This document shows, one piece after another, positions 31,512 through 63,704 of a DNA stretch of 64,000 bases. The stretch is from an uncultured Gemmatimonadales bacterium (GTDB lineage: Bacteria > Gemmatimonadota > Gemmatimonadetes > Longimicrobiales > RSA9). The notes under the pieces were generated by a model, which did not search any database, was not told where the DNA came from, and saw only the letters and a program-made list of their open reading frames with translations. The first letter of the stretch is position 1; each line of letters opens with the position of its first letter. The stretch lies in assembly GCA_963798085.1 (NCBI GenBank), contig CAWCRS010000004.1, positions 1-64,000 on the forward strand, written 5' to 3'. Both the position numbers and the translations under genes were made by a program.

Positions 31512-31534
31512 ACCAGCAACAACGGAGGATCGCC

Positions 31535-34197: not shown

Positions 34198-36471
34198 TCA
34201 CGAACTCCTGACCTCCACCACGACCGGCCCGGAGCAGCGAGTCATGCAGGCAAGCCGGTACTCACCGGGCGCCAGGCCTTTGCGACCGAGAGTCTTCTTT
34301 TCCTTGTCGGTCACCTCGTTCAGATGCTCCGCACCCTGCACAATGCGGATCACATCACAGCCGCACATCCCCATCCAGCATTCGTAGTCCATGGCCACGC
34401 CGTGGGCGTCGGCCCACGTCAGCAGCGTCTCTGCCGCATCCGCCGCACCGGCAATGTTCTGACCCTGGAACGTGATGTGTGGCCCGGCCGCGGACGGCGA
34501 GGCGGCGGGCGGCGGCGGCGCACCCGGTGGCGCCGCCGGCTGCGCCGGCTGCACCACCGGCATGGATCCGCTCTTCTCCGGCAAATCCTCGCGCAGCCGG
34601 ATCTGGAACAACTGGTTGCCCACGCGGAGCAGATCGTTGTGCTCGAGCCGCTGCTCGCCATCGATCCTCAGATACGTGCCGTTGCGGCTGCCCAGGTCCT
34701 GCAGCACGAAGTGCATGGCACGCGCCGTGGCCGCGAAATGGAAGCGTGAGAGCGTGAGGTCCCGGTCGTCGAGCGCCACATCGGGCTGCGAAGGACCGCC
34801 GCGCCGTCCGAAAACAACTGTGTTAGTGCCAAGCGGGTAGCGCGCGACCGGTCGGCTGGTGGCGTCGTAATGATCGATGAACAGTCCAGCCGCATCGCCG
34901 CTGGCAACCAGGATCTGGCGCCCTGCGCGCAGCAGCGCGCCAGGCTGCACCGTCAGCGGCGCTTCCGGACGCAACCGCAGGTAGGTGCCGGAGCGACTGC
35001 CGTCGTCACGCAGATGGAACGCGCCGTCACGATGCGAGATGGAAGCGTGATTCTCGGACAGGGCCGTGTCCTGCGCGAAGCTGACATCGCAACCCACACG
35101 GCCGATGGTGGTCACACCGTCAGTGCGCAGCGTGAAGTTCTCCGCATCGACGCCGGTCGGTGTGAGACTCACCAGGATCGCGGCGCGCTCACCGGGCGCA
35201 TCGCCGACTGCCGCCCCACCTGCTGCCGCAGCCCGCTCCGGCGCCAGACCGAGCGCCGCACTGATGCGCGCAATCCCTGCATCCGGCGTCGCACGGGCAA
35301 CCGGCTCCGCATCCCGGATGACGACGTTGACGGTCGCCTGCCCGTCCAGCTTCTGCCGGATCACTTCGGCAACGAAAACGCCATCACGCAGGGAACTCTT
35401 GATGTTGCCGCGATGCTTGACCTGCCGGAACTGATCCGGCGGCGCGCCGAAGTCATCGGTTTCGAGATACACCTGCGAGAGCAGGTCGCCGATCAGGTAC
35501 ACATTGCGCTGCTGCGTTTCGAGCAGCGGTGAGACCACGCACATCTTGCGGTTCTGTGCCGCCGGCACCATGGCAATGCCCAGCTGGCGCAGGAACGCCT
35601 CCGGAATGTCCTCGCCGATGCAGGCAATGCAGCGCGTCTTCTGGAACTCGAGGTGCAGCGTCTCGGGCGGCCGGTCCGCTGCCATTCTGCGATCCACGCG
35701 CAGCGACAGGTACTCGACGCGATCGGGAGCCGTAACGACGCCAACCGGCTCGCTGTTAGGGTGGTAGCGAATGTTGCCGTTGCCGATGTACGCCTCGAAG
35801 AACTCGTCGGCCAGCGCCTTGGAGACACGCGGCATCTTCGAGCCGCGGTACGACCAGAAGACGTGTGACGCCTCCACCGCCTGGATCTTCGCCTTCGAGA
35901 TCGCGATCACGGCCTCGGCTGCGGACGTGCCGCCGCCGATCACGCAGACCGGGCCGGAAACGTAGTTGCCGGCATCATCCAGCCGGTACGCGATACCGTC
36001 GGTGTTGCCGGGAATGTCGAAGCGCCGAGGCACACCTCGCCCGATGGCGAGCACGACGTGACGCGCGTGCAGCAGGCCCGGCTCGCGCGTGCCATGATTC
36101 CAGGTGGACGCGTCCCAGCCGTGGCCGGCCGGCTGCAGTCCTGTCAGCTCGACACTGCATACGACCGGCACGCCAAAGCTGCTGTAGTGCTGTTTCCAGC
36201 GCGCGCAGATCTCGTCCTTGTCGATCGCCTCGAATTGCAGGCCGCTGATGCACTCGTCGCCCGCCGGAAACGCCATGCGGTCGCCACCGCCGAAATCCGG
36301 CAGGATGAGCTTGTCCTTGGGATAATCGCGAATGCGCTTGAGCACATCGTCGAAGTCGATCACGAGTGCCTGCAGTCCCAGCTCACGAGCGCGGAATGCG
36401 GCCGCGGTGCCGGCCGGGCCTGCGCCCACAACGAGCAGATCCAGGATTTCCGGCAGTTCGGCGCGGCTCAT
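34198..36471 (-). CDS. FAD/NAD(P) oxidoreductase (TrxR/YpdA-like) fused to two FHA domains and a C-terminal 2Fe-2S ferredoxin
   Basis: VVGAGPAG, LAIGRG, IGGGTSAAEA, YLIGD; FHA IGR..LSENH..GSRSGT and FGR..LSRFH..GSRNGT; CWMGMCGCD...RLAC. Confidence 0.85.
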   Translation of the reverse strand: MSRAELPEILDLLVVGAGPAGTAAAFRARELGLQALVIDFDDVLKRIRDYPKDKLILPDFGGGDRMAFPAGDECISGLQFEAIDKDEICARWKQHYSSFGVPVVCSVELTGLQPAGHGWDASTWNHGTREPGLLHARHVVLAIGRGVPRRFDIPGNTDGIAYRLDDAGNYVSGPVCVIGGGTSAAEAVIAISKAKIQAVEASHVFWSYRGSKMPRVSKALADEFFEAYIGNGNIRYHPNSEPVGVVTAPDRVEYLSLRVDRRMAADRPPETLHLEFQKTRCIACIGEDIPEAFLRQLGIAMVPAAQNRKMCVVSPLLETQQRNVYLIGDLLSQVYLETDDFGAPPDQFRQVKHRGNIKSSLRDGVFVAEVIRQKLDGQATVNVVIRDAEPVARATPDAGIARISAALGLAPERAAAAGGAAVGDAPGERAAILVSLTPTGVDAENFTLRTDGVTTIGRVGCDVSFAQDTALSENHASISHRDGAFHLRDDGSRSGTYLRLRPEAPLTVQPGALLRAGRQILVASGDAAGLFIDHYDATSRPVARYPLGTNTVVFGRRGGPSQPDVALDDRDLTLSRFHFAATARAMHFVLQDLGSRNGTYLRIDGEQRLEHNDLLRVGNQLFQIRLREDLPEKSGSMPVVQPAQPAAPPGAPPPPAASPSAAGPHITFQGQNIAGAADAAETLLTWADAHGVAMDYECWMGMCGCDVIRIVQGAEHLNEVTDKEKKTLGRKGLAPGEYRLACMTRCSGPVVVEVRSS

Positions 36472-37403
36472 CGCTGGATCAACTCGAACTCGAAGTAGGG
36501 ACCCAACCGGAATTTCATGCCGGGGACCAGACCGATGCTCTGAATGACATTGCCGTCCACATAGGTACCGTTCACGCTCTGCAGGTCCGTGAGCGTGATG
36601 CCCGTGGGCGCAATCTGCACCACGGCGTGTCTGCGGCCCAGCCACTTCTCCGGATCACGCAGTGCGATGTCGCATTCTTCCCAGCGGCCGATGAAGTTGT
36701 CGCCGGCACGCAGTGTCCATCTCTGCCGACTTCCATCCGGCATTGTCAGTTGCAACTCCAGCACGTGCGCCGGCATGGGCGCAGGCCGTGAGACTGGGGG
36801 CGGTGCGACCGGTGCAGACGGTGCGACTCGCGCAGGTGCTGCAGGCGGTGTGATGGGTGCGGGCGGCGCGACTGGTGGCAGTGCGACTGGTGCAGGTGGT
36901 GATTCCTGCGCAGGCTGCGCTGTTGTTGCAGGTGCAGGGGGTGCAGGGGGTGCAGGGGGTGCAGGCGTCGCGTACGCGACGGCGCGCGGATCAACGATGT
37001 CGTTGAAGCCGAGGTCGACCTGCGTGCTCTGTTCCTTCTGGACTTGCGGTGCCGGCGGCGGCGGTACGGGCGGCGCAACGGCCGGCGCATCCGCTTCACC
37101 GTGCACGAAGATCAGGTCGAGCGTTTCGGCGAGTGTGATGATGTTCACGCGATCCAGACGAGTGGGTGAGGTTACGGGCACGCCATCCACGCGCGTGCCA
37201 TTCCGACTGCCGAGATCCTCGAGGTAGTATTCGCCATCCTGCTGCCGGATGCGGGCGTGGCGGCCGGAAAGGAATGGGAAATCGAGCACGAGATCGTTCT
37301 CCGGGCCTCGGCCCAGACTCGTTTCTCGTCCGAACTCGTGGGTGACACCGGCTATGCTGCCGGTGCGACCGAGCAGCCGCGCTCGAGGCTGGGTCACAAT
37401 CAC
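36468..37403 (-). CDS. double-FHA protein with Pro-rich linker
   Basis: LGRGPEND..LSGRHARI..DLGSRNGT and IGRWEECD..GRRHA..DLQSVNGT; GTG start overlaps the upstream stop. Confidence 0.88.
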   Translation of the reverse strand: MIVTQPRARLLGRTGSIAGVTHEFGRETSLGRGPENDLVLDFPFLSGRHARIRQQDGEYYLEDLGSRNGTRVDGVPVTSPTRLDRVNIITLAETLDLIFVHGEADAPAVAPPVPPPPAPQVQKEQSTQVDLGFNDIVDPRAVAYATPAPPAPPAPPAPATTAQPAQESPPAPVALPPVAPPAPITPPAAPARVAPSAPVAPPPVSRPAPMPAHVLELQLTMPDGSRQRWTLRAGDNFIGRWEECDIALRDPEKWLGRRHAVVQIAPTGITLTDLQSVNGTYVDGNVIQSIGLVPGMKFRLGPYFEFELIQR

Positions 37404-38980
37404 CTCACCCGTTGATTCTGGCGCGACAGATTGGACCACTGCGCGTGGTCCGGATGGAAGCGGTGGCATTGCGTGCAGTCAGCAGGCGCGCGGCCGCTGC
37501 CGTGACAGCGCCGGCACACCTCAATGCCCGGCAGGTTCTGGATGCTGGCTCGATCCAGCGACGCCGGCACATCCTTGTCACGATCGACCCAGTCGCGGAT
37601 CGGTATCGCGGTGTGGCAGTCCAGACAGCGAGCGTGGATGATGTGGGCGCGGTGGCTGAACTCCGCGCGATTCAGTGTCCGCTGATCCGTCTGCACGCGC
37701 AGAATCGTGGCGCGCTCGACGATGTGACATTCGCGGCACTTCGTGGTCAGCGAGTCTGCCAGCGGTAGGACGGCGCTGTCGGCGAGCGAACCGATGGGAT
37801 CGGCCGCAGGCCGGTCGGCAACGCCCGCAGCGAAGCGACTCAGGTCGACCGGTGCCAGCGGGTCTTCCATGCGGCGCTCGATGACGTCCAGCAGACTCTC
37901 GAGCGAACGGAGTTCGTTCTGCACATCGCGTGACGGCTCGCCACGCAGCGCCTGGATCCAGGAGCGGAGTGTGGCGACGGCCTCCTGCGGCAGCACGCGG
38001 CCCTGGCCGGGCGGCACATCCGCGGATGCGCGCAGCAGCTGCGCCAGCGCGGCACCGGGATAGAGCTGCTGGCGCAGGCGGTTCAGGTTGTAGAGAATCC
38101 ACGGGTCCTCGTGATAGACGGGGCGCTTCAGAATGAATCCGCCCGCCTCCCTGAATTCATTCGAGTCCCAGTAGTTGGCGGCGTCCGCGCCCGGCGAGGA
38201 GGCATTGCGGATATCCTGCAGCGAGAGCACGCCCGCGGCTGTGCCACGCCCGGCCAGCGGCAGCAGCGGCGTCGCGTCCGACGCCGAGAGATGGCAATCA
38301 TCGCAGTGCCGCGCGAACGAGATGGGCTGGAAGAAGCGGCCCTCGGGCTCCGGCTCGTGACAGCGCACGCAGGTCGCTTCCAGATCGGTCAGCGAATCCC
38401 GCTTCATGATCTCGCGAACGTGCCGCACGTGCGTAAACAGCAGGTTAGCAGGATCGGGCACGGAATCAGCAATGAAGTCGAACTGCGGATGCCCGCTGCT
38501 GAAGGAGCCGGCCTTGTGGCAGGCCCGGCAGGTCGCGTCGGTCACCCGCTCGAGCGATGCCGTGCGGCCGCGGTGCTCGTCGTGGCACGCGGCGCACGGC
38601 GTCTCCCGGGTGCTCGGGGCGGAGCGGTCGAAGTCGGCCGACCGGTACACATAGTGGCGGCGGTAACTGTACGTGCCCAGCGGGTCGCCCGCCTTTTCGT
38701 GACAGTTGCTGCAACGCACGTCGGGCGTACCGCCGCCGGGCGCGTGGCAGTTCGCACAATCCCTGGCAAACAGTGCGTGGCTGTCCGAGAGCGGGCCGTT
38801 CGAGACGGCGGCCGCGTTGCCGAAAAGCGTGTCCGCGAGGAAGGGCAGAATCAGCAGCACCATGGCGCCTGCGCCGTACAGGAACAGGCGGCCGCGGCCC
38901 GTGCGCGGCGGATGCCGTGTCGCCACCGGCAGCCGGCTGGGCGTGAAGGCATCGTTCTCGAATCGGCGCTGGTCGCTCAC
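37400..38980 (-). CDS. membrane-anchored decaheme cytochrome c
   Basis: N-terminal TM; 10 CxxCH (CANCH, CSNCH, CAACH, CRACH, CVRCH, CDDCH, CRECH, CLDCH, CRRCH, CTQCH). Confidence 0.9.
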   Translation of the reverse strand: MSDQRRFENDAFTPSRLPVATRHPPRTGRGRLFLYGAGAMVLLILPFLADTLFGNAAAVSNGPLSDSHALFARDCANCHAPGGGTPDVRCSNCHEKAGDPLGTYSYRRHYVYRSADFDRSAPSTRETPCAACHDEHRGRTASLERVTDATCRACHKAGSFSSGHPQFDFIADSVPDPANLLFTHVRHVREIMKRDSLTDLEATCVRCHEPEPEGRFFQPISFARHCDDCHLSASDATPLLPLAGRGTAAGVLSLQDIRNASSPGADAANYWDSNEFREAGGFILKRPVYHEDPWILYNLNRLRQQLYPGAALAQLLRASADVPPGQGRVLPQEAVATLRSWIQALRGEPSRDVQNELRSLESLLDVIERRMEDPLAPVDLSRFAAGVADRPAADPIGSLADSAVLPLADSLTTKCRECHIVERATILRVQTDQRTLNRAEFSHRAHIIHARCLDCHTAIPIRDWVDRDKDVPASLDRASIQNLPGIEVCRRCHGSGRAPADCTQCHRFHPDHAQWSNLSRQNQRVR

Positions 38981-38992
38981 CCGGTCCGCCCG

Positions 38993-39847
38993 CTAGTAGT
39001 ACAGAACGAGTGACACGTGCAGCACCACCAGTCCCAGCAGGACCATCGCCACGGGCAGGTGCAACCAGAGCCAGAGCCGCAACCAGCGCTGCAGCGTGTA
39101 GTGCAGGTCCATCTCCAACTTGGTGTTATGGATCTGCTCCAGCTCATCGAGCGCCGGCGCCACGTCCGCGGGCACGGTCTGCCGCAGGATGTGGAACTCC
39201 TGGGAGCGGTAGGACTCCGAGCGACTCCGACCCAGCACGCTGCGCAGCGCGGCCTGCGGCGCCTCCATGTCGGGTGCGATCTCACGCGCGTAGTAGGCCT
39301 GCACCCGCGGACCGGCTCGCGCCGCCACCGCGCTGGCACGCGAGCGCAGCTCCTGCACCAGTTCCGGTATGCGCTGCAGGTTCACTTCGAAGGATGCGCC
39401 CGCATCCAGCAGCCGCGGAATCACGCGTTGCAGTGCCAGTCCGAAAGCGCCCGAGAGCACGACCCACAGACTGATCGTCCACAGCACGATCATCAGCGGA
39501 CCGGACGGGAGGCGGAAGTCCGTGTGCAGTAGCAGCAGCACCAGAAACAGCGTGCCGCCGGCCACGTGCAGCTGGAGATAGAACTGCGCGGGACCCAGAC
39601 TGCGCACGGCGGGCAGTGACCGGCGGATCGAGTAGAGCATCACGACCAGCAGCGTGGCGGCCGCGGCGATGCCGAACCCCTGACCCAGATCCGAGCGTGG
39701 TTGGAAAGCGCGGCCCGCGACGATTCGCAGGAGTATGGCAGTGATACCGATGAGGAGCGCAGTGTCGCGCATGGGTTGCCAGCGGAAGCGTACAGGTCTA
39801 CGCACTCTCCTGCGCACCGCGCCGAGAACCCCTGCAGCCGCCCGCAT
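38993..39847 (-). CDS. integral membrane protein, probable di-heme b quinone-interacting subunit
   Basis: His pairs in TM helices: QLHVAGGTLFLVLLLLH and WLHLPVAMVLLGLVVLH; TGATG coupling to the upstream gene. Confidence 0.72.
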   Translation of the reverse strand: MRAAAGVLGAVRRRVRRPVRFRWQPMRDTALLIGITAILLRIVAGRAFQPRSDLGQGFGIAAAATLLVVMLYSIRRSLPAVRSLGPAQFYLQLHVAGGTLFLVLLLLHTDFRLPSGPLMIVLWTISLWVVLSGAFGLALQRVIPRLLDAGASFEVNLQRIPELVQELRSRASAVAARAGPRVQAYYAREIAPDMEAPQAALRSVLGRSRSESYRSQEFHILRQTVPADVAPALDELEQIHNTKLEMDLHYTLQRWLRLWLWLHLPVAMVLLGLVVLHVSLVLYY

Positions 39848-41502
39848 CAGCGTTTCCTCGACAGCGTTTCGCGCTCCTGGTCCAGCCCCTGGGCCAGCGC
39901 CTTCGCGCGCAGCAGCGCGTCGAACTCGTCCGCCGTGCCGACGCGGTGTGCACAGCCATGCGGGCAGCTGCTCACGCAGGCCGGTCCGGCCGGCGAAGCG
40001 TAGCAGAGATCACACTTGGTGGCGACCCGCCGTTCCTGGCCGCGCAGATGCTCGGGCAGCGCGTTCGACGGCCAGGTCTCGCCCAGCTCGTGCATGATGA
40101 TCGCGTCGTACGGGCAGTTCTCGGCACACGCGCCGCAGCCGATGCAGATACTGGGGTCGATCTCGACGACATTACCCACGTTGGCGCGGCGGATCGCTCC
40201 GGTCGGACAGCCGATCAGGCACACGGGATCGGCGCAGTGATAGCACGCACGCGTGATCAGGAAACCGCTGTACTTCTCGCCTTCCCGCACGAAGCGGGGA
40301 ATGCCGCCGTGCGTACTGGCGCACCCGCGCACGCAGTCATCACAGCGGGTGCAGGTTTCCAGATCGATCACCAGGATGGAGTTGCCCTGGACCAGCCCCT
40401 TGGCCAGCGCGAAATCGACCAGGTCGGAGCGGTGCGGGTGGTGGCGCGTAAAACCGATCTCGCGGATGCGGTCGACGGCCGATTCCCAGACGTACTTCTG
40501 CAGCTCCGGCTGCTGCCCGAATACGGCTGACAGATCGTTATAGCGGATGCGCACCAGTTCGGAATAGCCGACGGAGCGGGTGGTCGTCTGCCACTTCCTC
40601 CCCAGCTCGGGAAGCAGCAGCTCCACTTCGCCCAGCAGTGAGCCCTTGCTCAGGTAGGAGACCGCCATTTCGCCGGCTCCGACCGCCTGCGTCAACTTCA
40701 GGAATCCGGAGCGCACGAGAATCACGTGCTCGGCCAGCTTGCCTTCCGCGGTCACTTCGTCGCCGGGCTGCAGCGATACCAGCTCCACGCGCTCGCACAG
40801 CTTCTCGATGATGGACGCATCGCAGCCGCGCAGCAGGGGTGTGGTGGACAGGTGCTGGCGCAGGGTGCGCACGCGATACAGCTCGTCCAGCCGCTCGCGC
40901 AGTTTCCTCGCCTTGCGCCGCAGCTTGCGCAACGCGGGCAGCCGGATCTGTACCAGCCGGCAGGCGCTGGCGGTGCGTGCCGTCACCGATTGCGGCCAGC
41001 CGTTCAGTGCGCCGATCTCGCCGAAGATGTCGCCGGCCGCGAGCCGCATGCGGCCACCGCGGGGCAGATCGAAATCCGCACTCGCCAGGAATGTGATGGG
41101 CGCGTTCTGCGCAACGTTCCTCTGCGCGAGCGGCGACACGACATTCCCGGCGAGCGTGTCCGTTGTGGGGATGGAACTCATGATGCGCGTCGGAAAAATC
41201 GGCTTGCCCGACTCGGCATCACTGGCCAGGTACAGCTCGACTTCGCCGCTGTCGATCCAGAATGCCAGGTCGACGTAGGTGCCTTCCTCGAAAAGGATCG
41301 CGCCCGCGCGCCACGTCGCGATGGAAACATCCGCGCTGATGTCCTTGAGGAAATCGTCGTCGAGGCCATCGAAGATGGGATAACGGCGCAGCTCCGACGG
41401 ATACATCACGCTCGAGATGTCGACGATGCCGGTGTGGTCTCCCCACGATGACCAGCGATCGGTGTGCAGCTGCCGGCGCATCACGAACGTCGGTGATTCC
41501 AC
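39847..41502 (-). CDS. two cNMP-binding-fold domains fused to a 4x[4Fe-4S] NrfC/DmsB-type domain
   Basis: GDIFGEIGAL and GSLLGEVELL; CTRCDDCVRGC, CYHCADPVCLIGCP, CIGCGACAENCP, KCDLC..PACVSSCP; GTG start after GAGG. Confidence 0.88.
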   Translation of the reverse strand: MESPTFVMRRQLHTDRWSSWGDHTGIVDISSVMYPSELRRYPIFDGLDDDFLKDISADVSIATWRAGAILFEEGTYVDLAFWIDSGEVELYLASDAESGKPIFPTRIMSSIPTTDTLAGNVVSPLAQRNVAQNAPITFLASADFDLPRGGRMRLAAGDIFGEIGALNGWPQSVTARTASACRLVQIRLPALRKLRRKARKLRERLDELYRVRTLRQHLSTTPLLRGCDASIIEKLCERVELVSLQPGDEVTAEGKLAEHVILVRSGFLKLTQAVGAGEMAVSYLSKGSLLGEVELLLPELGRKWQTTTRSVGYSELVRIRYNDLSAVFGQQPELQKYVWESAVDRIREIGFTRHHPHRSDLVDFALAKGLVQGNSILVIDLETCTRCDDCVRGCASTHGGIPRFVREGEKYSGFLITRACYHCADPVCLIGCPTGAIRRANVGNVVEIDPSICIGCGACAENCPYDAIIMHELGETWPSNALPEHLRGQERRVATKCDLCYASPAGPACVSSCPHGCAHRVGTADEFDALLRAKALAQGLDQERETLSRKR

Positions 41503-41509
41503 AAGCGCC

Positions 41510-43669: not shown

Positions 43670-43675
43670 CGCCTC

Positions 43676-47080: not shown

Positions 47081-47159
47081 GGCAGTATCTCAGCGTGAGG
47101 GAGGCCGGGTTTTCAGACTGTCGGCGCAGGCGATGCGCCTTGCAGCAACGCTCGCCGGC

Positions 47160-48296: not shown

Positions 48297-48304
48297 GCGC
48301 CCCC

Positions 48305-49600: not shown

Positions 49601-49930
49601 GGAACCTCCTTCGAAGCCAGGCGGAGGAGAAAAAGCCTCGTTTGCGCGAAGCCGAAGATCCATGAGGTAGCGACCGCTCCAAAATGCCGCGCCGCCTCAC
49701 CCAGCGTCAATCGCGGTGCAACCTGTCGCGCGAAATCGGTCGGCTCGAAATCCGGAATCGCGCCTTCGATTTCTACGTGAGCACATTTCTTCCATTCAAG
49801 CAGGATCGGGTTCCGCGAGTTGCGAAGCAGTGTGAGACGTGCGCCTTGCCGTTGACTGCCTTCCTGGTCAGTGGCGCAAAATGTCATGACAAGTGGCCGT
49901 GCCGCAGACGCACGGGCCCGCCGTCAAGAA

Positions 49931-51268: not shown

Positions 51269-51276
51269 GGAGCGCG

Positions 51277-53912: not shown

Positions 53913-53987
53913 GCAAACACTCCGTTATGGGGCTGCTCGCGCACGCTGGACTCGCCTGCGGGCGAGGCGACTACGCCGGAAACCCGG

Positions 53988-54485
53988 TCACCGGCAATTG
54001 GCCTGCTCCTTCCGCTCGTCCCATTTCACAGGCCCCTCGAACTTGCGCGCGCGTACGATCTCGACGGGATAGGCATCGGTGCGGAAGCGATGGCAGCCCT
54101 GCACCGTGCGCACCACGATGGTGAGCACATCCTCGCGCTTGCCGGCGGAGTTCAGTTCGGGCCGCACCAGCAGGCTGTCGACGTGAATCTGGTCGTCGGG
54201 CGTCATGCGACCGGCTCCCACAACGATCACCATTTCGCGGTTGAAATCGACGGTGGGCGCAGCGGGCGGTGACGCGAGCGGCGTCGTCGCCTGCTTCCAG
54301 TACTCGAGCATGCTGGCGCCATTGCGGATGACCACGCGCACCGAGTCGCGGATGCCGCCCCCGTTGTCGTAGAGCAGCGGCACGGGTGGCGGCATGGGTG
54401 TGGGCGGCGGCGGCTGTGCCGGCCGGTGGTGAGCGCACGCGCCCAGCAGCAGCGCGCCGAGCAGGATGCGGGCGGATTCGCGCAT
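53988..54485 (-). CDS. lipoprotein with a PrcB C-terminal-like domain
   Basis: LGAC lipobox; PTVDFNREMVIVVGAG motif. Confidence 0.6.
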   Translation of the reverse strand: MRESARILLGALLLGACAHHRPAQPPPPTPMPPPVPLLYDNGGGIRDSVRVVIRNGASMLEYWKQATTPLASPPAAPTVDFNREMVIVVGAGRMTPDDQIHVDSLLVRPELNSAGKREDVLTIVVRTVQGCHRFRTDAYPVEIVRARKFEGPVKWDERKEQANCR

Positions 54486-54524
54486 TGTCGTTCTATCGGT
54501 CGAGGGGAGAAAAGGCACCGGGTT

Positions 54525-57500
54525 TCACTTCGCGATCCGCGTGACACAACGGCCGAGCCGGCCCAGGTAGTCCTTCTGGAAGATGGGCGTACCCTTGCCG
54601 AAGCTCAACTCGGCGGAGAGCGTCGTCGTCTGCCCGGGCACCCTCCAGGTCACCAGCCAGGCCGCGCCGCGGCGCTCGAAGGACGTGGCGCTGTAGAACA
54701 CGTGGAACACGGCCCACGGTCCGGGCGGTGCATCCACCACGATAACATTGGCGTTACCGATCTTCGCGCGGATCTGCGCGCCCGACGTGCCGCCGCCCCG
54801 CCACTCGTAGGTACGCGACGCGGCCTGCGTCGGCGTGAAACGGTCGGGACGGCCATCCAGGTTCACCGTGACTTCGGGAATCTGCGGCGAAGTCTGCGGC
54901 TTGAGCGCGAACACGACGAACGGACCATCGCCATTCTCGTCGAAGAAGGCGCTGGACACTTCCGCCGCGCGATTGAAGAAGTCGACGAATGCGATGTCCG
55001 CCTGGGGCGTTGCACCCGCCTTGGCCACGTAGCGCGAGCCCTGGCGCAGCAGCAGGTCCTGCAGCGCATCCTGGTAGAACTGCCACAGTGCGCCGTTGCC
55101 GGGCTGCAGCGCATTGGTCACTTCGTCGATGGTCGCTTCGGTGCGCGACGCCGAGCTGAACGGGAACTTGCCCGAGAGCTGCGTCAGCGGTGCGCAGAAC
55201 GATGGGCCCTTCTTGTTCACCTCATCGACAGGCAGCGCGCCGATCACGGACTCCGCGCTGGTCACGGGCGCGAGCAGCTGCTGCTGAATGGCGGCGCCCA
55301 CCAGCCGGGCATCGCCTTCCGTGCTGAAATTCCGGGCCATGCCCGAGATCTCGCCCTTCACCTGCTGCGCCGACGAGCTGGCCTGCAGCATGGCCTGGGT
55401 CTGCAGGGAGCCGTTGCTGGTCGCCACTTGGTCGAGCGCCGACTGCAGCCCGCCCAGTGCCGTCAGGTACTTGCCGGCCGGGTCGGATACGCTCGTGGCG
55501 TGTGGCGGCACTACGTCCTGCGCCGGCTTGAAGGCCTTGCCCACCAGCACCGTGTCAACAGCGGTGTTATCAGAGACAATGCCGATCATGCGCAGCAGCG
55601 GCGACTGATTCGAGCTGAGCATGCGCAGCTTGCCGGATGCGTCCTGCACACTGCCGAACGAGCCCACACGACCACCCTGCAGGAAGCGCAGCCACCAGCT
55701 CGTGTACTCGCTGGTGTAACGCCCGCGCAGGTTCTGCTCGAGACGGGCGCGCGCATCGGCCGGCACCGCACTCTCGCCCGCCACCCAGGTCTCGCGATCG
55801 AACAGCTTCTGTATGTTGTTCAGGCTGGCCTGCACCACGTCCCAGCCGTGGCGAGTGAAGGCGCCGGGCACTACCACGTCATTACGCAGCGTCCCATCCG
55901 CCCACTGCACGGATGCCGCCGAATCCGCCGCCGCACCGAGCAGCACGCGATAGAACTGGTCGTCGCCGGCAAAGCCGCGCAGGAATCCACGCACCTGCTC
56001 GACCAGCGCGGTGTCGGCAACGTCGCGGAAGGGATTGCTGAAGGGCAGCTCGTCCGCGTAGAAGCCGAACTGCGCCTGCGCCAGGCGGGCGCGCGCGGAA
56101 TCGGTGGCGCCACCCGCCGTCCAGAACCTCATCAGCGCGGGCGCCAGAAAATCGCGCTTCGATTCGTCCGGCTTGCTGCTCGTGACGATGTACGCTTTCA
56201 GCGCGTCGTAGGTCTGCGGGTACTCGCTGGTCTCGCTGTTCTCGCCGGGCGAGGCGGGCCGCGCGCGCAGCCAGCCCAGCAGCGCGGAACGCGTGCGCTC
56301 CCAGAGCAGCTGCCGGAATCTCGTGAAGTACAGGAGCCGCATCTCTGGCTGCAGCCGGTCGCCCGCGTAGAGTCCCCAGCCCATGCTCGCCGGGTGCCCG
56401 CCGCGAACATAGGTGTTCAGGCGCGCGGCCTCGGCGCGCAGCGAATCGAGGCGCTGCAGCGTTTCCAGATCCGGCAGCGGGCCCACCGAGGCAAGTCCGC
56501 GCGCGCCCGTCACCGCGTTGCGCGCATCGCTCAGCAGGCCGCGATTGCGGAAGAACGAAACCGTGAAGCCAATGGAGAAGACGAGCGCGGCCACGCCGGC
56601 GGCGGCGATGACGGCGCGGCGCAGCAGATTCACCTTGGTGCCGCCCGCGGTCACCCTGCGTGCGACGTCGTCCTTCTGGATGACGTCGCGGAACACGCGC
56701 TCGAGGAAGGACCACTCCGGCACCTTGCGCGAGCCCGCGGGCGCCTGTGCGTGCGCCTGCATCTGCGCCATCTGCGCCTGCAGCTGGCGGGGGTCGAACA
56801 CGCCCGTCGCATCCATGGGCGTCTGCGAGACCGGGCCGCCGGCCGCCGCACGCGGCGCTTCCGCACCCGCGTCGTGCAGGAATACGGCCCGCACACCGGT
56901 GAAGTAGAAACCCCGCAGGAACGGACTGACACCGAGTTGGCTGGGGCGGCACAGATCGAGGAGGAACTGCGTCGCCAGATCCGTGATCTTGCGGAACTCG
57001 CGCGGGAACTCGTATGCGCCCGCCCTCAGATCATCGCGTGTCTCGCGCGGCAGCACATCCAGGCGGCGCAGCGCGAGGCCGCGGAACAGCACGTGGAACG
57101 CCTCCGACAGACGACGCGATTCGCGCTCTGCGTACGCGCCCACACCACCGGCCTGAGGCACGGTGAGCGTGACACCCAGCACATCACGCGTTTCTTCGCG
57201 CGTGAGGCTGCGCATGAAGTCCTCGAAGTACGGCAGCCGGTCCGACTTGGTGAACAGCACGTAGACGGGCAGGCGGATCCCGATCTGCTGCGAGACTTCC
57301 GCCAGCCGGGTGCGCAGCCGCTGCGCGGCCGCGGGCACCGCTTCCGATGCGCCCGGCTTGAGCAGCTCATCACAGCCGAAACACACGACGGCCACACGCG
57401 GCGCCTGCCGCCCGCGCGAGAACACTGCGCCCAGCCGGCTGGGCTGCACGTGCCGGATCAGCCGGCGCCAGCGGCCGGCTTCGTTCAGCACCTTCGCGCC

Positions 57501-57968
57501 CGCCTCGAGCACGAGCGTGCCCTGCGCGAACCACACGTTCACCGACGACGTCGGTACGATCGCGTCGCCACGATACACCTCGCCCGCGAGCAGCTCGGGC
57601 TCCATTCCCGAGTGCGCGACGATCGTGGTCTTGGCGCTGCTCGCCGGGCCCGTCATCAGAATGACCGGCAGCCGGCCGAACTTCGCCGCGGCCTTGCCCT
57701 TCGCCGCCGCGAGCCGGTTCCTTGCCGCCGAGAACGTGACGTCGATTTCGTCGCGGCCCTCCGCTTCCACCGGCTCGGCCTTCGCCTTCCCGGACTGCCA
57801 CAGGAACACGAGGATGGCGGCAATCAGACCGAGCAGCCACACGCCCCCCACCAGCAGCCATCGGCTCGAGCCGGTCAGACCCAGAAGCGCGGCCGCAGCC
57901 CAGCCCACCAGCAGGAAGAGCAGAAACGTGCTGCTCGTGAAGGTCCAGATCTTTGGCGCTCGCTTCAT
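54525..57968 (-). CDS. tssM: type VI secretion membrane protein TssM/IcmF
   Basis: N-terminal TMs, degenerate Walker A GPASSAKTT, LPVYVLFTKSD, FLRGFYFTG, WGLYAG, YDALKAY, KFPF, GPWAVF; follows tssL. Confidence 0.92.
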   Translation of the reverse strand: MKRAPKIWTFTSSTFLLFLLVGWAAAALLGLTGSSRWLLVGGVWLLGLIAAILVFLWQSGKAKAEPVEAEGRDEIDVTFSAARNRLAAAKGKAAAKFGRLPVILMTGPASSAKTTIVAHSGMEPELLAGEVYRGDAIVPTSSVNVWFAQGTLVLEAGAKVLNEAGRWRRLIRHVQPSRLGAVFSRGRQAPRVAVVCFGCDELLKPGASEAVPAAAQRLRTRLAEVSQQIGIRLPVYVLFTKSDRLPYFEDFMRSLTREETRDVLGVTLTVPQAGGVGAYAERESRRLSEAFHVLFRGLALRRLDVLPRETRDDLRAGAYEFPREFRKITDLATQFLLDLCRPSQLGVSPFLRGFYFTGVRAVFLHDAGAEAPRAAAGGPVSQTPMDATGVFDPRQLQAQMAQMQAHAQAPAGSRKVPEWSFLERVFRDVIQKDDVARRVTAGGTKVNLLRRAVIAAAGVAALVFSIGFTVSFFRNRGLLSDARNAVTGARGLASVGPLPDLETLQRLDSLRAEAARLNTYVRGGHPASMGWGLYAGDRLQPEMRLLYFTRFRQLLWERTRSALLGWLRARPASPGENSETSEYPQTYDALKAYIVTSSKPDESKRDFLAPALMRFWTAGGATDSARARLAQAQFGFYADELPFSNPFRDVADTALVEQVRGFLRGFAGDDQFYRVLLGAAADSAASVQWADGTLRNDVVVPGAFTRHGWDVVQASLNNIQKLFDRETWVAGESAVPADARARLEQNLRGRYTSEYTSWWLRFLQGGRVGSFGSVQDASGKLRMLSSNQSPLLRMIGIVSDNTAVDTVLVGKAFKPAQDVVPPHATSVSDPAGKYLTALGGLQSALDQVATSNGSLQTQAMLQASSSAQQVKGEISGMARNFSTEGDARLVGAAIQQQLLAPVTSAESVIGALPVDEVNKKGPSFCAPLTQLSGKFPFSSASRTEATIDEVTNALQPGNGALWQFYQDALQDLLLRQGSRYVAKAGATPQADIAFVDFFNRAAEVSSAFFDENGDGPFVVFALKPQTSPQIPEVTVNLDGRPDRFTPTQAASRTYEWRGGGTSGAQIRAKIGNANVIVVDAPPGPWAVFHVFYSATSFERRGAAWLVTWRVPGQTTTLSAELSFGKGTPIFQKDYLGRLGRCVTRIAK

Positions 57969-57979
57969 CGGGATCGATC

Positions 57980-58711
57980 CTAACTGCCGCTTACGAGCTG
58001 GGCGGCGGCATCACGAACGTGATTCGCGCCCGAGATCAGTGTGAGCTTGTACAGTACGAAGAGCAGCAGCGCGAAGGCGATGACACCACCCGCCATGAGC
58101 GCCAGCCGGCGCAGCCACGGATCCGACGCCGCCGCCACCAGCTCGCCCTGCGGCAGCACCCACGCCGCGGGCATGGCGGCACGCGTGCCGCGAATGCGCT
58201 GGATCTTCTGCTGGATCGACATCACCAGGCCCTGCAGCGTGCCCGGATCACTCGCCGTGTACTTGCCCCGGAAGCCCAGCAGCAGACACAGCACGTAGAC
58301 CTCGAGCAGGTCCGCCAGCTCCGGCGCATCCTGCCTGGCCATCAGCTCGCCCACGTAGCGGAAGAAATTCTCGCCCGCCATGTGCTCGCCGAAGATCTCC
58401 TCCTGCAGCGGCTGGCGGGTCCAGTCCGCGAACATGCCCTGGGACGAGTGCAGCACCGTCTCGTCCAGGAACGCGATGTACGCGTAGATGGCCAGCTTCA
58501 CATGCTCGGCGTCGTAGCCGCGCGCGCGCGCATCGCGGTCCGCGCTTGCCAGCAGCGCCTTCACGTGCGCGCGGAATGACTGCGCATCGGTCGCTGCCTG
58601 GCGGTTCGCGCGCAGCCGCACCGCCACCGTGAACGCCTCCTGCAGCGCCAGGGCCAGCTCGCCCGCGCGCGCCGCGGCTTCGGCCCCGGGCCGAACCGTC
58701 TGGGAACTCAT
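57980..58711 (-). CDS. tssL: type VI secretion TssL/DotU (no OmpA domain)
   Basis: YAYIAFLDETVL, W.RQPLQ..FGEHMAGENFF, LEVYVLCLLLGFRGKY, C-terminal TM. Confidence 0.92.
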   Translation of the reverse strand: MSSQTVRPGAEAAARAGELALALQEAFTVAVRLRANRQAATDAQSFRAHVKALLASADRDARARGYDAEHVKLAIYAYIAFLDETVLHSSQGMFADWTRQPLQEEIFGEHMAGENFFRYVGELMARQDAPELADLLEVYVLCLLLGFRGKYTASDPGTLQGLVMSIQQKIQRIRGTRAAMPAAWVLPQGELVAAASDPWLRRLALMAGGVIAFALLLFVLYKLTLISGANHVRDAAAQLVSGS

Positions 58712-60067
58712 GATCCGAGCACGATGGTCAGCTCCAGCTCTGCATTGGGAATCGCGGCCGGCAGGTACATGCCCACGTTGCCCGTCTTCGCCATGAGCGC
58801 CCAGCACGGACCGGCCGTCTGTACGTGGAAATAGTGCGAGCCCATGCGCGGCGAGATGGCAGCCGGGGGCGAGGCTTCGTAATCGAGTGTCAGGCCGGGC
58901 AGGCCCTCGCGCACCAGCCGCGTGATGTGTTCCGCGGAGCATACCTTGGTCAGGCGAGGCACGCCGGTGGCCACTTCTGCGCGCGAACCCGTCGAGCGCA
59001 CCCCCAGATACCAGTGTGTGCCGGGCGCGAAACAGCGCTGGTCCGGCACCGGCGCGCGATAGAAGAACTGCTGCTCGGTCGCCACCATGGGAACCACCAC
59101 CGCGTTGGTCGGAATGATGATCTCGAGAATGCCGCCGGATATGGCTCTCCAGCGCGTCGAAGCACGTCGCCAGATCGTCGTGATCGTAGGACGGCAGGTC
59201 ACGCGGGTGGGCATCGAACGAAAACGTGCACAGTGCGCCCGCCAGGCGGGACATCTCAATGAACAGGCGCTCGGGGTGCACCGCACGCGTCTGCAGCAGG
59301 TGCCGCAGCGGCGAGTTTGCCGCATTGACGGCGTGCGTCAGCCAGAAATTCGCCACTTCGCGCGCCGCCCATTCCGCCAGCGGCTGCTGCGTCGCGCGAC
59401 GCTCGCGCAGCATCGCGTCCGACTTCGCGTCCAAAATCTCGACAAGGCGGGCTGTCATGCGGAGCAGGCGCTCGCTCGCACCCAGCTGCAGGCAGGGCGG
59501 CACGTAGTCCGGATCATAAATGAAATGGCCCCGCCCGTCTCGGCGTACCCGCGCGATGGGCAGCGTCACCAGATCTTCGTGCTCCTGATGCTCGAGCAGC
59601 AGGCGGAAGTTCTTGCGACCCAGTACGACCTGCTTCTCGTCGCTGCCCGTGATCTCGTCCGAGAGGGACTGCGGCGTGGCGACGTAGCGCACCCCGGAGC
59701 GGTCGACTTCGCCGTCCAGCGCACAGTTGGCGTGACCCGCGCGCTCCGGCGGAATCGCCAGCAGCACGGCATGACGGTCGTGCACCGGTGAGAACAGGGG
59801 TCCGACGTCGAGCGGGTCGGGCGGCGTGTCTTCGGGAAAATGGAAGGCCAGACCATCGGGCATCAGCCCGCGCGCGTGTGTCAGCGAAACGGTCCCGTTC
59901 AGCAGCGCGTCGACGTCCAGCTCGCACCCGACCAGTCCATACGTGCGGAAGAAGAGGCTGCCCAGCGCGAACGAGGTCAGCTCTTCGAAATACCGGTTTT
60001 GCGCCTGGAAGTGGTGCTGGGCCAGGTGCATGCCCTCGCGCCACACCACGGGTGACAAGAACTTCAT
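58708..60067 (-). CDS. tssK: type VI secretion baseplate TssK, copy 1 (frameshift at about 59129)
   Basis: VVWREGMHLAQHHFQAQ, YVPPCL, HPERLF, YDHDDL; C-terminus in ORF 58708-59325 (GLPGLTL, HYF). Confidence 0.9.
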
Positions 60068-60139
60068 GCTCTCCTCCGAGCCCAGCGCGCGCATGCACAA
60101 TGCACGGCCACGCTCGATTGCCGGCTACGGTAACGGCGG

Positions 60140-60151
60140 GTAGTATACTAC
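60140..60151. promoter_or_regulatory. perfect 12-bp palindrome in a divergent promoter region
   Basis: GTAGTATACTAC carries TATACT (-10-like) on both strands, between tssK-1 and the Pro-rich gene. Confidence 0.45.
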
Positions 60152-60236
60152 GTTGCCGGCGCGTTGGCCGGAACCATCGACGCATCCGCTCCGATCGACG
60201 CATTTGATCACAACGCTCGCGCCGCCCGAGTACTGA

Positions 60237-62339
60237 ATGACCAGCGCCGGTTTCCACGAACGATATCAGGTTCTGCAGCAGGTGAGCGACGGACCCGTCC
60301 GCTCGTTTCACGCCATGGCCGCTACCGGCGCCGTCGTCATGGTGCACTTCGTCGCTGCAGGCGACGACACGCGGCATCGCATTCTCGGGCTGATCGACCG
60401 GCTCCGACCCGCCGAGCGAAAGCGCGTCGTCGAGACCGCAGACGTGGACCAGAGCTTCGTCATCGTCACCCGTTTCATTCTCGACTTCACCTCGCTCGAG
60501 GCCTGGCTGCTCGCGCATCAGGCGGACGCCTCGAGTACCGGTCCCTTCGCGGTCGCGCGTGAGCATACCGGGGGTCAGGCGACGACGCCGCCGCAGCGCC
60601 CGGTCCCGCCGCCGGCAATGTCGCTCCAGCCGCCGGGTCCGCCCATCGCGCGTCCACCGGCCGGCGCCACTTTCGCTCCACCGCCGCGGCCACTCACTCC
60701 GCCGCCCCTGCCGCCGGTCGCGCCGCTGCAGCCGGTGGCCAGCCGGCCGCCCGTGCCGCCGCCCGCGCCGCCCATGCCGCCACCGCCACCCCCGGCGCCC
60801 CCGGCGCCCCCGGCGCCGCCGGCCGGTAAGCCGCCGGGCGAATTCACCATGATGTTCGCGAACCCAAACCCGGCCGGGGCGCCGGCTTCCCCACCGCCAC
60901 CGGCCGCGGTTCCGCCCTCACCGCCGCCCTTCACGCCACCGCCGCCACCACCGCCAGCGCCTCCCGTGGCGAGCAAGCCGCCCGGCGATTTTACCATGAT
61001 GTTCGCGAAGCCCGAGGCTCCGGCGGGCCAGCCAGCCCCGGCAGGAATGATGCCCGCCCCGCTGCCACCGCCGCCGGCCCAGCCGCCACCGGCGCCGCCC
61101 GTGCAACCGCCGCCACCGCCACCACCTCCAGCGAAACAGCCCGGCGATTTCACGCTGATGTTCATGAAAGCGCCCGGCGAACTGACGGCAAACGCACCCG
61201 CCGTGCAGCCGCCGGCCGTGACGCCGCCAGCGCCTCCAGCGCCGCCCGCTCCGACTCAAGCGCCACCCGCGCTTCCGGCATCACCGCCGCCACCACCGGC
61301 GTTCGCGGCGCCGCAGCCACCGATCTTCGCGGCACCCGTACGGCCACCGCCGCCGCTGGCGCAGCCGCCGGCAGCCCCGCCGCCCATGCCGCCGCAGGCG
61401 CCACCTGTCTGGTCGCCGGCGACCCGGCCAATCTCGCCGCAGCCACCAATGGCGCAGCCGCCCGCACCGCCATCGGCGCCGGGTGACTTCACGCGCATTT
61501 TCCGCCACGAGAGCGGTCCGCCTCCCCCGGCCTCGCCCGGGATGCCCCCCGCAGGGGCTACGGGCAGCTTCGCGATTCCCGGTCCATTCGCGCCCCAGGC
61601 GGCGCCGCCGCCCGCGCCGCCGAGGCCGGCCTCGCCACCCCCTCCGCCAGCGCAACCCGCGGCGCCCGGCGAATTCACCCAGCTTTTCGCGGGGCCGGCG
61701 CAGCCGTCAGCAGCGCCGCCGCCACCACCGGCACCGCCCGGGCGCATGCCGGGAGCGACATCGCCGGGCAGCATCGGCCCGAGCGACAACTACCTCGACC
61801 GGCTCAGCTCACCGAGTTCGTTCAGTGCCGGCCCGACGCCGTCTTCCGCGGCCACGCCGCCTGCGCCGGGCGCCGCCAATCCGAAGGAACCGGGCGAGTT
61901 CACGAAGATGGTGCGGGGCGCCGGTGCTCAGCCCAGACCGCCGTCGACACGGCCGCCGACACCGGCGCTGACGCGGCCGCCTTTTGCGACGCCTCACATG
62001 CCCGGCATGACTCCGCCACCGCCTCCTCCCACGCCGCAGGGGCCGAGCGAATTCACGCGCATCGTGTCCGCCGCACACATGGCGCCGCCACCCGCGCCTG
62101 CGCCGCCGCCACCGCCACCACCTCCAAGGGTCGTGGCGGCGCCACCGCCCAACCCGAACCAGAAGCTGCTGATCATCGGGCTGATCGTGATTGCGGTTCT
62201 GGCGCTGGTGCTGATCCTGGTGTTCGCATTGCGCCCGCAGGCGTCGCCCGCGACCTCGCCGGGCAATGTGCCGGCGGCGGGCGCGCCGGCCGCTCCGGCG
62301 GGCAGCTCCTCGCCGGGGGCTGCGGGATCCGGCTCCTGA
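60237..62339 (+). CDS. Pro-rich membrane protein with seven [GS][ED]FTxx(hydrophobic) repeats
   Basis: About 95-aa globular N-terminus, Pro/Ala-rich region with the recurrent motif, TM LLIIGLIVIAVLALVLILVFAL near the C-terminus. Confidence 0.8.
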   Translation: MTSAGFHERYQVLQQVSDGPVRSFHAMAATGAVVMVHFVAAGDDTRHRILGLIDRLRPAERKRVVETADVDQSFVIVTRFILDFTSLEAWLLAHQADASSTGPFAVAREHTGGQATTPPQRPVPPPAMSLQPPGPPIARPPAGATFAPPPRPLTPPPLPPVAPLQPVASRPPVPPPAPPMPPPPPPAPPAPPAPPAGKPPGEFTMMFANPNPAGAPASPPPPAAVPPSPPPFTPPPPPPPAPPVASKPPGDFTMMFAKPEAPAGQPAPAGMMPAPLPPPPAQPPPAPPVQPPPPPPPPAKQPGDFTLMFMKAPGELTANAPAVQPPAVTPPAPPAPPAPTQAPPALPASPPPPPAFAAPQPPIFAAPVRPPPPLAQPPAAPPPMPPQAPPVWSPATRPISPQPPMAQPPAPPSAPGDFTRIFRHESGPPPPASPGMPPAGATGSFAIPGPFAPQAAPPPAPPRPASPPPPPAQPAAPGEFTQLFAGPAQPSAAPPPPPAPPGRMPGATSPGSIGPSDNYLDRLSSPSSFSAGPTPSSAATPPAPGAANPKEPGEFTKMVRGAGAQPRPPSTRPPTPALTRPPFATPHMPGMTPPPPPPTPQGPSEFTRIVSAAHMAPPPAPAPPPPPPPPRVVAAPPPNPNQKLLIIGLIVIAVLALVLILVFALRPQASPATSPGNVPAAGAPAAPAGSSSPGAAGSGS

Positions 62340-62348
62340 ACGCTGCGC

Positions 62349-63704
62349 TCAGCGGGCGGGGGGCAGGAGGATGACCAGCTCGAGCCGTGGATTGGGCAGG
62401 TCGGACGGCACGTAGACCGCCAGATTTCTCGCCACCTTGATCGAGTCCCAGTCGCTGCCCGTCAGGTCCAGCGCGAAGTACTGATAGTCGAGGCGCACGG
62501 GCAGGGCGCTGGGTGGATTGGCTACGTAGCTGAGCGACAGGCCGGGCAGAGCCCGCTTGATCAGCCGGTCCAGCTGGTCCGCCGAGCTGACTTTCAGCAA
62601 CTGCGGCGCCTTGCGCGACAGTTCTTCCGGCTTCACATCCGCGGCCACGGCCAGGTACATCTGTGTCGACTTCAGGTAGCGCTCCTGATCGATGGCCGCG
62701 GCGTAGACGGCGGGTTCCGTCAGGCGCAGCGGCAGCGACGCATGGTTCGACGGCACCACGGTCTCGAGCAGCTCCCGCACCATGTCATCCAGCTGCGCGA
62801 AGCAGGTGGAGAGGTTGCTGTGGTCGTACTCCGGCAGCATGCGCGGGTGCACGGTGGTGGAGAAGGTGGTCAGCGCGCCCGCCAGCCCGAGCATTGCGCC
62901 GTACAGCTCGACGGGGTGACCGTGCCGGGTCTCGAAGAGATGGCGGAACTCCGGTAGCCACGTGTTCATCGTATAGAGCAGCCAGAAATTGGCGACATCG
63001 GACACGCCGAAGTCGGCCAGGCCGAGATTGCGCTGCCGGCGTGAGCCCGAGAGGCTGGTGCTGCGCGCCGAGAGCTGCTCGACGAGGCGGCGGGCATAGC
63101 CCATGAGGTGGTCGCTCGCGGCAATGTCGATCAGCGGCGGCACGAACACGGGGTCGAGCTGGAACACGCCCGCCACCGAACGTGTGATGCGCGCCAGCGG
63201 GATCGTGGAATTGCCTTCCAGCGTTTCGCCCTCGATCACGAGCCGGAGATTCTTGCGCGCCACCTGGATCGGCTTCTCGCCCTTGCCGGTGTTCTCGTCC
63301 CGGCGGTTCACGACTTCCGCTATGAAGCGCGTCTGCCGGTCCACCGCGTTGGTGGAGACGTTGTAGCCGCCGAAGCGCAGCTCGGGCACACCCAGCCACA
63401 CGTGCAGCGCATCGCGATCCGGATGCCAATGCTCCTCGATGGGCCGGGGCGCGGGCGACGGCTCCGAGCGCGGTACATCGAAAGGCAACCCATCGGGGAA
63501 GATCCCGGCCGCGTCCGTCACCGCCAGCTCGCCGCCCGCGAGCGCCTCGCGGTCGATCTCCAGGCGGGCGAAGCCCCACGGACAGAACGTCAGCGAGCCC
63601 AACTGGAAATGGAGCAGCGTCTCCAGAAACCGGTCCTGCGTCTGCAGGTGCTGCGGCGTGAGCAGCACGCCCTTGGTCCAGAGGACCTTCTGCATCTGGG
63701 TCAT
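62349..63704 (-). CDS. tssK: type VI secretion baseplate TssK, copy 2
   Basis: VLWTKGVLLTPQHLQTQD, FVPPL, VANFWLL, HPVELY, YDHSNL, ALPGL, YQYF. Confidence 0.92.
   Translation of the reverse strand: MTQMQKVLWTKGVLLTPQHLQTQDRFLETLLHFQLGSLTFCPWGFARLEIDREALAGGELAVTDAAGIFPDGLPFDVPRSEPSPAPRPIEEHWHPDRDALHVWLGVPELRFGGYNVSTNAVDRQTRFIAEVVNRRDENTGKGEKPIQVARKNLRLVIEGETLEGNSTIPLARITRSVAGVFQLDPVFVPPLIDIAASDHLMGYARRLVEQLSARSTSLSGSRRQRNLGLADFGVSDVANFWLLYTMNTWLPEFRHLFETRHGHPVELYGAMLGLAGALTTFSTTVHPRMLPEYDHSNLSTCFAQLDDMVRELLETVVPSNHASLPLRLTEPAVYAAAIDQERYLKSTQMYLAVAADVKPEELSRKAPQLLKVSSADQLDRLIKRALPGLSLSYVANPPSALPVRLDYQYFALDLTGSDWDSIKVARNLAVYVPSDLPNPRLELVILLPPAR

Follow-up and report, generated by a model that had tools for sequence, protein, structure and literature searches.

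A 64,000-nucleotide stretch of contig CAWCRS010000004.1 (G000:C4:1-64000; hereafter the window) from an uncultured Gemmatimonadales bacterium (G000; 6.23 Mb, 12 contigs) carries 17 genes on the minus strand, from the start of tssK-1, a type VI secretion system (T6SS) gene, at 60067 to 34198, and we consider it probable that this run consists of two separately inherited units lying side by side. One is a T6SS membrane/baseplate unit with a switch resembling PpkA/PppA, the other a ptd-type redox operon with forkhead-associated (FHA) domains, predicted to form an electron-conducting wire that crosses the envelope and is gated by phosphorylation, which would have been inserted behind the T6SS unit at a 330-bp gap (49601-49930) and would work independently of it. 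Gene order and spacing bore out the initial annotation as regards the run and its single larger gap, all other intergenic distances being -70 to +79 bp with the start codons chosen here. Pfam searches also confirmed its count of one Ser/Thr kinase, one PP2C phosphatase and five FHA domains, and these five, within 34618-51202, were all the FHA matches of the 6.23-Mb genome at E ≤ 1e-4. Its claim that the whole of 34198-63704 is co-oriented was refuted by a genuine plus-strand gene at 60237-62339 between two tssK copies, the N-terminus of which is conserved in G001, G425, G434 and G708 (G-numbers denote other genomes, G001 being a congener, G017 from the same family and G292 from the same order; L-numbers denote homologous loci). 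Nor is the run unique in length: according to a crude gene caller, which overlooked the plus-strand gene and extended the present run to 63704, 28 of 1052 same-strand runs in G000 were at least 25 kb long, placing this one in the top 3%.

Distribution of the redox operon and its linkage to T6SS genes

T6SS queries matched none of 80 genome loci of the redox operon (the best 80 of 563 confirmed) and none of 80 metagenome loci (the best 80 of 262, centred on the porin), within flanks of at most 10 kb, many of them short or ended by contig ends; 24 of the 80 metagenome loci retained at least 3 kb upstream of ptdA. Of the ptdA relatives that come with upstream DNA, the closest (L129, 75%) gave no match to the T6SS or the kinase cassette in 8.2 kb. 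The best 80 of the 563 genome loci spanned Gemmatimonadota, Rhodothermota, Bacteroidota, Ignavibacteria, Acidobacteriota, KSB1, Calditrichota and others, and encoded the membrane protein (n = 70), decaheme cytochrome (n = 67), FHA adaptor (n = 60) and reductase (n = 50), many being cut by contig ends.

Whole-genome searches of 79 carriers (two second loci of the same genome dropped, G017 added) recovered TssC in 16 (10/41 and 6/38) and none in 63. Among these 16, only G433 had TssC on the same contig as the operon marker (the PtdE-like gene, 39847-41487), some 160-180 kb away; the others were fragmented. Across 72 other genomes of the family, tssM was found in 12, all of which lacked the marker, and the marker in one, G017 (96% complete), where neither TssC nor TssM was found. 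The marker occurred in five of 400 order genomes and two of 400 phylum genomes, and G708 carried both systems on different contigs. With none of 160 loci near T6SS genes, TssC in 16 of 79 carriers and the marker in none of 12 T6SS-bearing relatives, the proposal of a conserved T6SS-redox super-locus was not supported. The initial annotation had taken a general lack of linkage to T6SS or kinase genes, together with independent expression of the two blocks, as the outcome that would speak against it. On linkage, T6SS and kinase genes differ: homologous redox operons are mostly unlinked to T6SS genes, but 24 of 47 loci have a kinase inside or within 3 kb. The T6SS-redox pairing was seen in one genome and, as posed, matters little.

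A likely insertion at the CsgG-like/FHA-protease junction

Nucleotide similarity to G001 (blastn) resumes at 50055, and in that genome 4 bp separate the stop codons of a CsgG-like gene and the FHA-protease gene that ends the T6SS cassette. The cassette stands tail-to-tail with the CsgG-like gene in 10 of the 16 relatives examined (G001, G003, G006, G010, G015, G292, G510, G522, G523 and G708); five others have different genes or a contig end there, and in G017 the ptd operon lies 7-11 kb off on the opposite strand. A ptd operon co-oriented behind the cassette was found in none of the 16. Because the cassette adjoins the CsgG-like gene in 10 of 16 relatives and lies 17.7 kb from it in the window, the redox block was likely inserted, a polarity that we infer: an RCC1-repeat gene, the redox operon and a TPR-CsgG/outer-membrane pair would have entered at this junction, now marked by the 330-bp gap. 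G708 keeps the ancestral junction intact despite having both systems.

Several observations weigh against an insertion of an independent unit. No insertion sequence, target duplication or compositional anomaly marks the redox block, the tetranucleotide distance of which is ordinary (76th percentile), and no repeats beyond GC-rich chance matches were found at its ends; it is possible that the block was lost in relatives instead of inserted here. Five of eight marker-bearing Gemmatimonadota have tssM, compared to 13 of 73 genomes in the family, although the sample is small and its members are related. Each of the two blocks reaches a contig end in G425 and G434, so that they may be linked there, and tssM and the marker are 13 kb apart in the window, compared to flanks of at most 10 kb in the loci searched. 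In addition, every FHA domain of the genome lies within 34618-51202 and the redox operon is kinase-less here, and G017 has the same kinase-PP2C clade 7-11 kb from its ptd operon, without a T6SS.

A promoter and terminator scan of 46000-64000 gave one promoter-like and six terminator-like sites, against 0.9 and 7.1 expected by chance. A hairpin at 49653-49634 was not counted as evidence.

Table 1. Features of the window on either side of the 330-bp gap, in order of position.
Feature	Position	Strand	Basis and remarks
CsgG-like protein, 232 aa	31535..32233	+	Left side of likely insertion; faces FHA-protease in relatives
RCC1-repeat protein	32322..34139	+	Pfam RCC1; not at this junction in G001
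Thioredoxin-reductase-like flavoprotein + FHA + FHA + 2Fe-2S domain	34198..36471	-	Pyr_redox_2, 2 FHA, Fer2
FHA - Pro/Thr-rich linker - FHA adaptor	36468..37469	-	2 FHA (Pfam)
PtdG-like membrane-anchored decaheme cytochrome c	37400..38980	-	10 CxxCH, one hydrophobic segment; Cytochrome_C7
PtdF-like protein with five transmembrane (TM) helices, predicted di-heme b	38993..39772	-	Conserved His pairs; no Pfam match
PtdE-like, two cNMP-fold domains + predicted four [4Fe-4S] clusters	39847..41487	-	cNMP_binding x2, Fer4
PtdD-like cytochrome c554-type, doubled, 8 hemes	41510..43669	-	8 CxxCH; Cytochrome_C554 x2
PtdB-like outer-membrane beta-barrel (porin)	43676..45250	-	Beta-barrel model; Foldseek
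PtdA-like pentaheme cytochrome with C-terminal domain	45250..47080	-	5 CxxCH; PDB 5ZE8 cytochrome c552, E 4.7e-13
Putative outer-membrane protein, partner of TPR-CsgG gene	47160..48296	-	tblastn against own genome; barrel predicted from sequence
TPR + CsgG-like putative lipoprotein	48305..49600	-	Pfam TPR, CsgG; first gene of likely inserted block
330-bp gap	49601..49930		Right breakpoint of synteny with relatives
FHA-TM-trypsin-like protease, last cassette gene	49931..51268	-	FHA, Trypsin_2; TM 130-148
PP2C phosphatase, PppA-like by position	51277..52218	-	Pfam PP2C
Membrane Ser/Thr kinase, PpkA-like by position	52197..53912	-	Pkinase; TM 368-386; DFD replaces DFG
Putative lipoprotein, PrcB_C-like	53988..54518	-	Atlas features 0.92; PF14343 in ~80% of members
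tssM	54525..57968	-	Four IcmF Pfam domains; TIGR03348 345.6 bits, below 388 cut-off
tssL	57980..58711	-	DotU; separate 244-aa open reading frame (ORF) in G001
tssK-1	58708..60067	-	TIGR03353 in two pieces; intact 457 aa in G001
Pro-rich membrane protein	60237..62339	+	Seven [ED]FTxx[FVILM] repeats; TM 644-662
tssK-2	62349..63704	-	TIGR03353 411 bits

The T6SS block and its accessory cassette

All core genes of a subtype i T6SS were present (tssA, tssB, tssC, hcp, tssE, tssF, tssG, clpV, vgrG, tssK, tssL and tssM), with tssB, tssC, hcp, tagJ, tssA, tssE, tssF, tssG, clpV, four vgrG genes and PAAR lying past the end of the window as plus-strand genes (C4:64294-102839). The T6SS structural operon (G000:C4:64294-104890; L001-L003) also contains several DUF2169 proteins, an Rhs-repeat protein and, at its end, a second kinase.

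The genes tssK, tssL and tssM, together with those for the lipoprotein, kinase, PP2C and FHA-protease, form a T6SS accessory cassette that is conserved within the family. A PP2C orthologue was found in 13 of the 72 family genomes, 10 of these having tssM (itself in 12 of the 72), and in eight genomes it was co-oriented with tssM and downstream of it. The PrcB_C-like lipoprotein gene followed tssM in every relative examined. The DFD motif of the kinase is common to the orthologues of G001, G006, G008, G010, G015 and G708, those of G510 and G428 having DFG. His, Asp and Ser motifs are present in the FHA-protease sequence, and this fusion of a cytoplasmic phospho-reader with a predicted periplasmic protease is conserved with the cassette. 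The best Fha1/TagH match (TIGR03354) in G000 reached 72.8 bits against a cut-off of 120.25, none of five genomes exceeding that cut-off, and TssJ (PF12790) had no match in G000 or four relatives. A PpkA/PppA/Fha1-type switch, as initially annotated, therefore stands insofar as the kinase and PP2C are T6SS-associated by position and synteny, and falls short in that no FHA protein reached the Fha1/TagH cut-off.

The Pro-rich protein encoded between the two tssK genes is the sole ORF in the genome with at least three [ED]FTxx[FVILM] repeats, four to six of which occur in its counterparts in G001, G425 and G434. Because its seven repeats are unique in the genome and kept in these three relatives, we take it to be the likeliest substrate of the T6SS kinase. 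FHA domains prefer the pThr+3 position, and the repeats make this protein a candidate multivalent phospho-threonine scaffold, with FHA docking, for this T6SS type. Its relatives form unnamed Atlas clusters in Gemmatimonadota and Acidobacteriota. Under the mechanism that we propose, the membrane kinase would phosphorylate threonines of T6SS partners in the cytoplasm, the most likely targets being the GEFTxxF-type repeats of the Pro-rich protein; the FHA-protease would read this mark and PP2C would reset it.

Two genes of the window, ptdA (near 45869) and tssK-1 (near 59128), are each read in two frames. As near-identical contigs of run X1, which may be the source sample, have one base fewer at each site (one contig each, depth <5) and homologues are whole (ptdA 612-731 aa; tssK 457 aa in G001), both frameshifts probably stem from the assembly. 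On the same grounds we rejected an apparent TssK-TssL fusion ORF and a split PtdA.

Gene content of the redox operon

The thioredoxin-reductase-like flavoprotein at the end of the operon retains GxGxxG and GGGxSA in 40/40 homologues (top PDB match 7A76, E 2.7e-9) and is predicted to be the NADPH entry or exit point of the wire. Its 2Fe-2S domain (34198-34500) reads C-x4-C-x2-D...C, with Asp in 39/40, and may have 3Cys-1Asp ligation. Two His pairs, each 14 residues apart, characterize the PtdF-like protein (His69/His83 in 49/49 and His238/His252 in 48/49 homologues); its helical model (pLDDT 89.7) matched cytochrome b561 (Z 8.2, rmsd 3.2, 136 aligned) no better than it matched unrelated helical bundles. 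The PtdE-like protein keeps 16 Cys in 58/58 homologues. Binders of cyclic nucleotides carry Arg at a pocket position that is occupied by Gln in both of its cNMP-fold domains (first pocket, 53/58 homologues), and therefore the ligand is uncertain and may differ from cAMP. Homologues of the PtdD-like cytochrome have three to four or seven to eight CxxCH motifs, and the PtdB-like barrel matched MOMP, OprD-family and AlgE barrels in Foldseek (best E 8e-12).

Electrons would pass from NADPH through FAD, 2Fe-2S and the four 4Fe-4S clusters of PtdE to the di-heme b of PtdF, and onward through the decaheme PtdG and octaheme PtdD to the pentaheme/porin pair PtdA/B, in one direction or the other. The FHA-FHA adaptor and the FHA domains inside the reductase may gate docking of the reductase on this wire.

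In L021, L033, L082 and L094 (Ignavibacteria, KSB1 and some Acidobacteriota), the c554 gene has a different outer module upstream instead of PtdA/B, made up of a protein of 1160-1280 aa that contains 9-10 hemes as well as LVIVD repeats, and of an HbpS-like protein. The TPR-CsgG lipoprotein at 48305-49600 matches the G001 copy at 43.5%, compared to 60% for the plus-strand copy. Four pairs of TPR-CsgG and outer-membrane genes were found in G000 (28632-32233 and 47160-49600 in the window, and on C5 and C7), and such pairs recur near kinases and ptd loci in other phyla.

Phospho-threonine readers and kinases of the redox operon

A kinase gene lay inside or within 3 kb of 24 of 47 ptd loci with at least 5 kb of flank, compared to 3% of random G000 positions; the 47 loci include kin and are not independent, and the background is that of G000 only (23 kinases), not of the Acidobacteriota, which are kinase-rich. 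Ten carriers, picked for a kinase near the operon, had 2-28 kinases each, G440 and G447 having two, one of them in the operon. In the second FHA domain of the reductase, Gly-Arg, Ser-Arg and Asn are invariant (40/40 homologues), although most carriers had no TssC match. In the adaptor, the first FHA domain keeps Ser (44/46), His (46/46) and Asn (44/46), and the second has Gly here compared to Ser in 44/46 homologues. In a quick tree of 62 rows, from which one weak row (L069) was omitted, the window kinase grouped (SH-aLRT 99) with the kinases next to tssM in G001 and G428 and with the cassette kinase of G017. Most other ptd loci have kinases outside this group, spread over at least four clades. 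As the redox operon is kinase-less here and all five FHA domains of the genome lie at 34618-51202, the closest candidate for the writer is the kinase of the cassette.

Motif conservation and gene neighbourhoods support the view that the redox operon is equipped for reading phospho-threonine and repeatedly linked to kinases on its own, without a T6SS. The initially annotated wiring of a kinase switch to a redox module thus retains support for the operon itself, given its kinase linkage (24/47) and conserved FHA pockets, and not for the T6SS as part of the unit. The conserved phospho-threonine readers of this widespread and uncharacterised porin-cytochrome operon, and its recruitment of kinases belonging to several clades, suggest that electron flow across the envelope is under phosphorylation control. 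In G017, an FHA-carrying protein (L014:14535-15428) faces the end of the ptd operon, and its N-terminus resembles a class III nucleotide cyclase.

Alternative explanations for the adjacency

Functional pairing confined to this lineage, in which the redox FHA domains would read phospho-threonine written by the T6SS kinase and erased by its PP2C so that one envelope signal switches both the T6SS and electron flow, is in our judgement unlikely. It would account for the location of every FHA domain of the genome here and for an operon that is kinase-less in the window, yet kinase-bearing in 24 of 47 homologous loci, with kinases from several clades. The same cassette is also paired with ptd in G017, tssM is present in five of eight marker-bearing Gemmatimonadota, and PpkA-PppA affects oxidative-stress responses in Pseudomonas aeruginosa (PMC3224232). 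However, at least 22 other kinases are encoded in the genome, twelve T6SS-bearing relatives are without the marker and G708 has both systems unlinked; adjacency is moreover unnecessary for such sharing, and sharing alone would not tie firing to redox state. We hold it to be distinctly improbable that the insertion gave the kinase-less wire to the T6SS kinase and that kinase and PP2C, via the five FHA domains, switch on both T6SS firing and NADPH-driven electron export across the envelope at cell contact. If true, this would be the first case of a contractile weapon being directly coupled to extracellular electron transfer.

A super-operon conserved as one T6SS-redox entity and serving an oxidative burst or metal handling during attack, in line with the initial annotation, is very improbable. 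Di-heme b domains of the NOX/ferric-reductase type have a four-His layout, which PtdF shares, and co-orientation and tight spacing also agree with a single operon; set against these are the absence of T6SS matches near all 160 loci, the 63 of 79 carriers without TssC, the 12 T6SS-bearing relatives without the marker and the junction that is intact in 10 of 16 relatives. A superoxide-producing oxidase would, in addition, need no periplasmic cytochromes and porin, yet the wire appears to continue through them. There is also very little to commend a misassembly of this metagenome-assembled contig as the source of the adjacency. Near-identical short X1 contigs cover pieces of both blocks, one of them extending from the FHA-protease gene 156 bases into the gap, and both outer flanks follow the G001 order, which a single chimeric join would not produce, although the assembly has likely single-base errors and the whole 330-bp gap was spanned by none of the X1 contigs compared.

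Comparison with known systems

Judged by published description, the operon at 34198-47080 is an FHA-bearing variant of ptdABCDEFG, a porin-cytochrome operon of unknown function (bioRxiv 10.1101/2023.11.21.568154). Going by the main text of that preprint, which mentions no FHA, kinase, secretion or Gemmatimonad, the two are alike in the order of pentaheme, porin, c554-type cytochrome, cNMP/4Fe-4S protein, membrane protein (ferric-reductase-like there, 5-TM with four conserved His here) and decaheme. In ptdABCDEFG, as described there, an FAD/NAD(P) oxidoreductase (PtdC) stands between PtdB and PtdD, whereas here 6 bp and no oxidoreductase gene separate the two and the thioredoxin-reductase-like flavoprotein lies at the operon end; because PtdC is not between them, we filed the operon as a variant. 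PtdD is described as tetraheme and PtdE with two clusters, compared to a doubled, octaheme PtdD and four predicted PtdE clusters in the window, and the present operon adds the FHA-FHA adaptor, the terminal reductase-FHA-FHA-2Fe-2S gene and kinase linkage. The PtdA described there, a pentaheme with a C-terminal domain, has a relative in cytochrome c552 from a purple sulfur bacterium, and the PtdA-like protein here matches 5ZE8. We take 5ZE8 to be that same c552.

Other FHA-bearing cytochrome clusters have been noted. In Ferrigenium straubiae, a nonaheme cytochrome cluster combines an FHA-nonaheme protein with a 5-TM and a 4Fe-4S protein (10.64898/2026.01.22.701106); compared by description only, FHA is fused to the cytochrome in that cluster and resides in separate proteins and the reductase here. 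A table in PMC9900912 includes a 10-heme forkhead-associated cluster, and the portion of 10.64898/2026.05.27.727921 considered here mentions no FHA, kinase or ptd. Save for the FHA-nonaheme remark in 10.64898/2026.01.22.701106, we found no paper on phospho-threonine control of a ptd-type operon.

The T6SS unit, in turn, resembles the PpkA/PppA/Fha threonine-phosphorylation switch (PMC3953482, PMC3224232), in that a membrane Ser/Thr kinase and a PP2C are encoded immediately downstream of tssKLM and are conserved with the T6SS in relatives. It differs in that no Fha1/TagH match exceeded the cut-off, the FHA domain of the cassette is part of a membrane-anchored protease, the kinase has DFD, TssJ was not found and a Thr-repeat membrane protein lies between two tssK genes. 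Ultimately, the Longimicrobiales T6SS cassette, with its DFD kinase, FHA-protease and Thr-repeat protein in a setting where TagH and TssJ were not found, offers a concrete variant of the PpkA switch.

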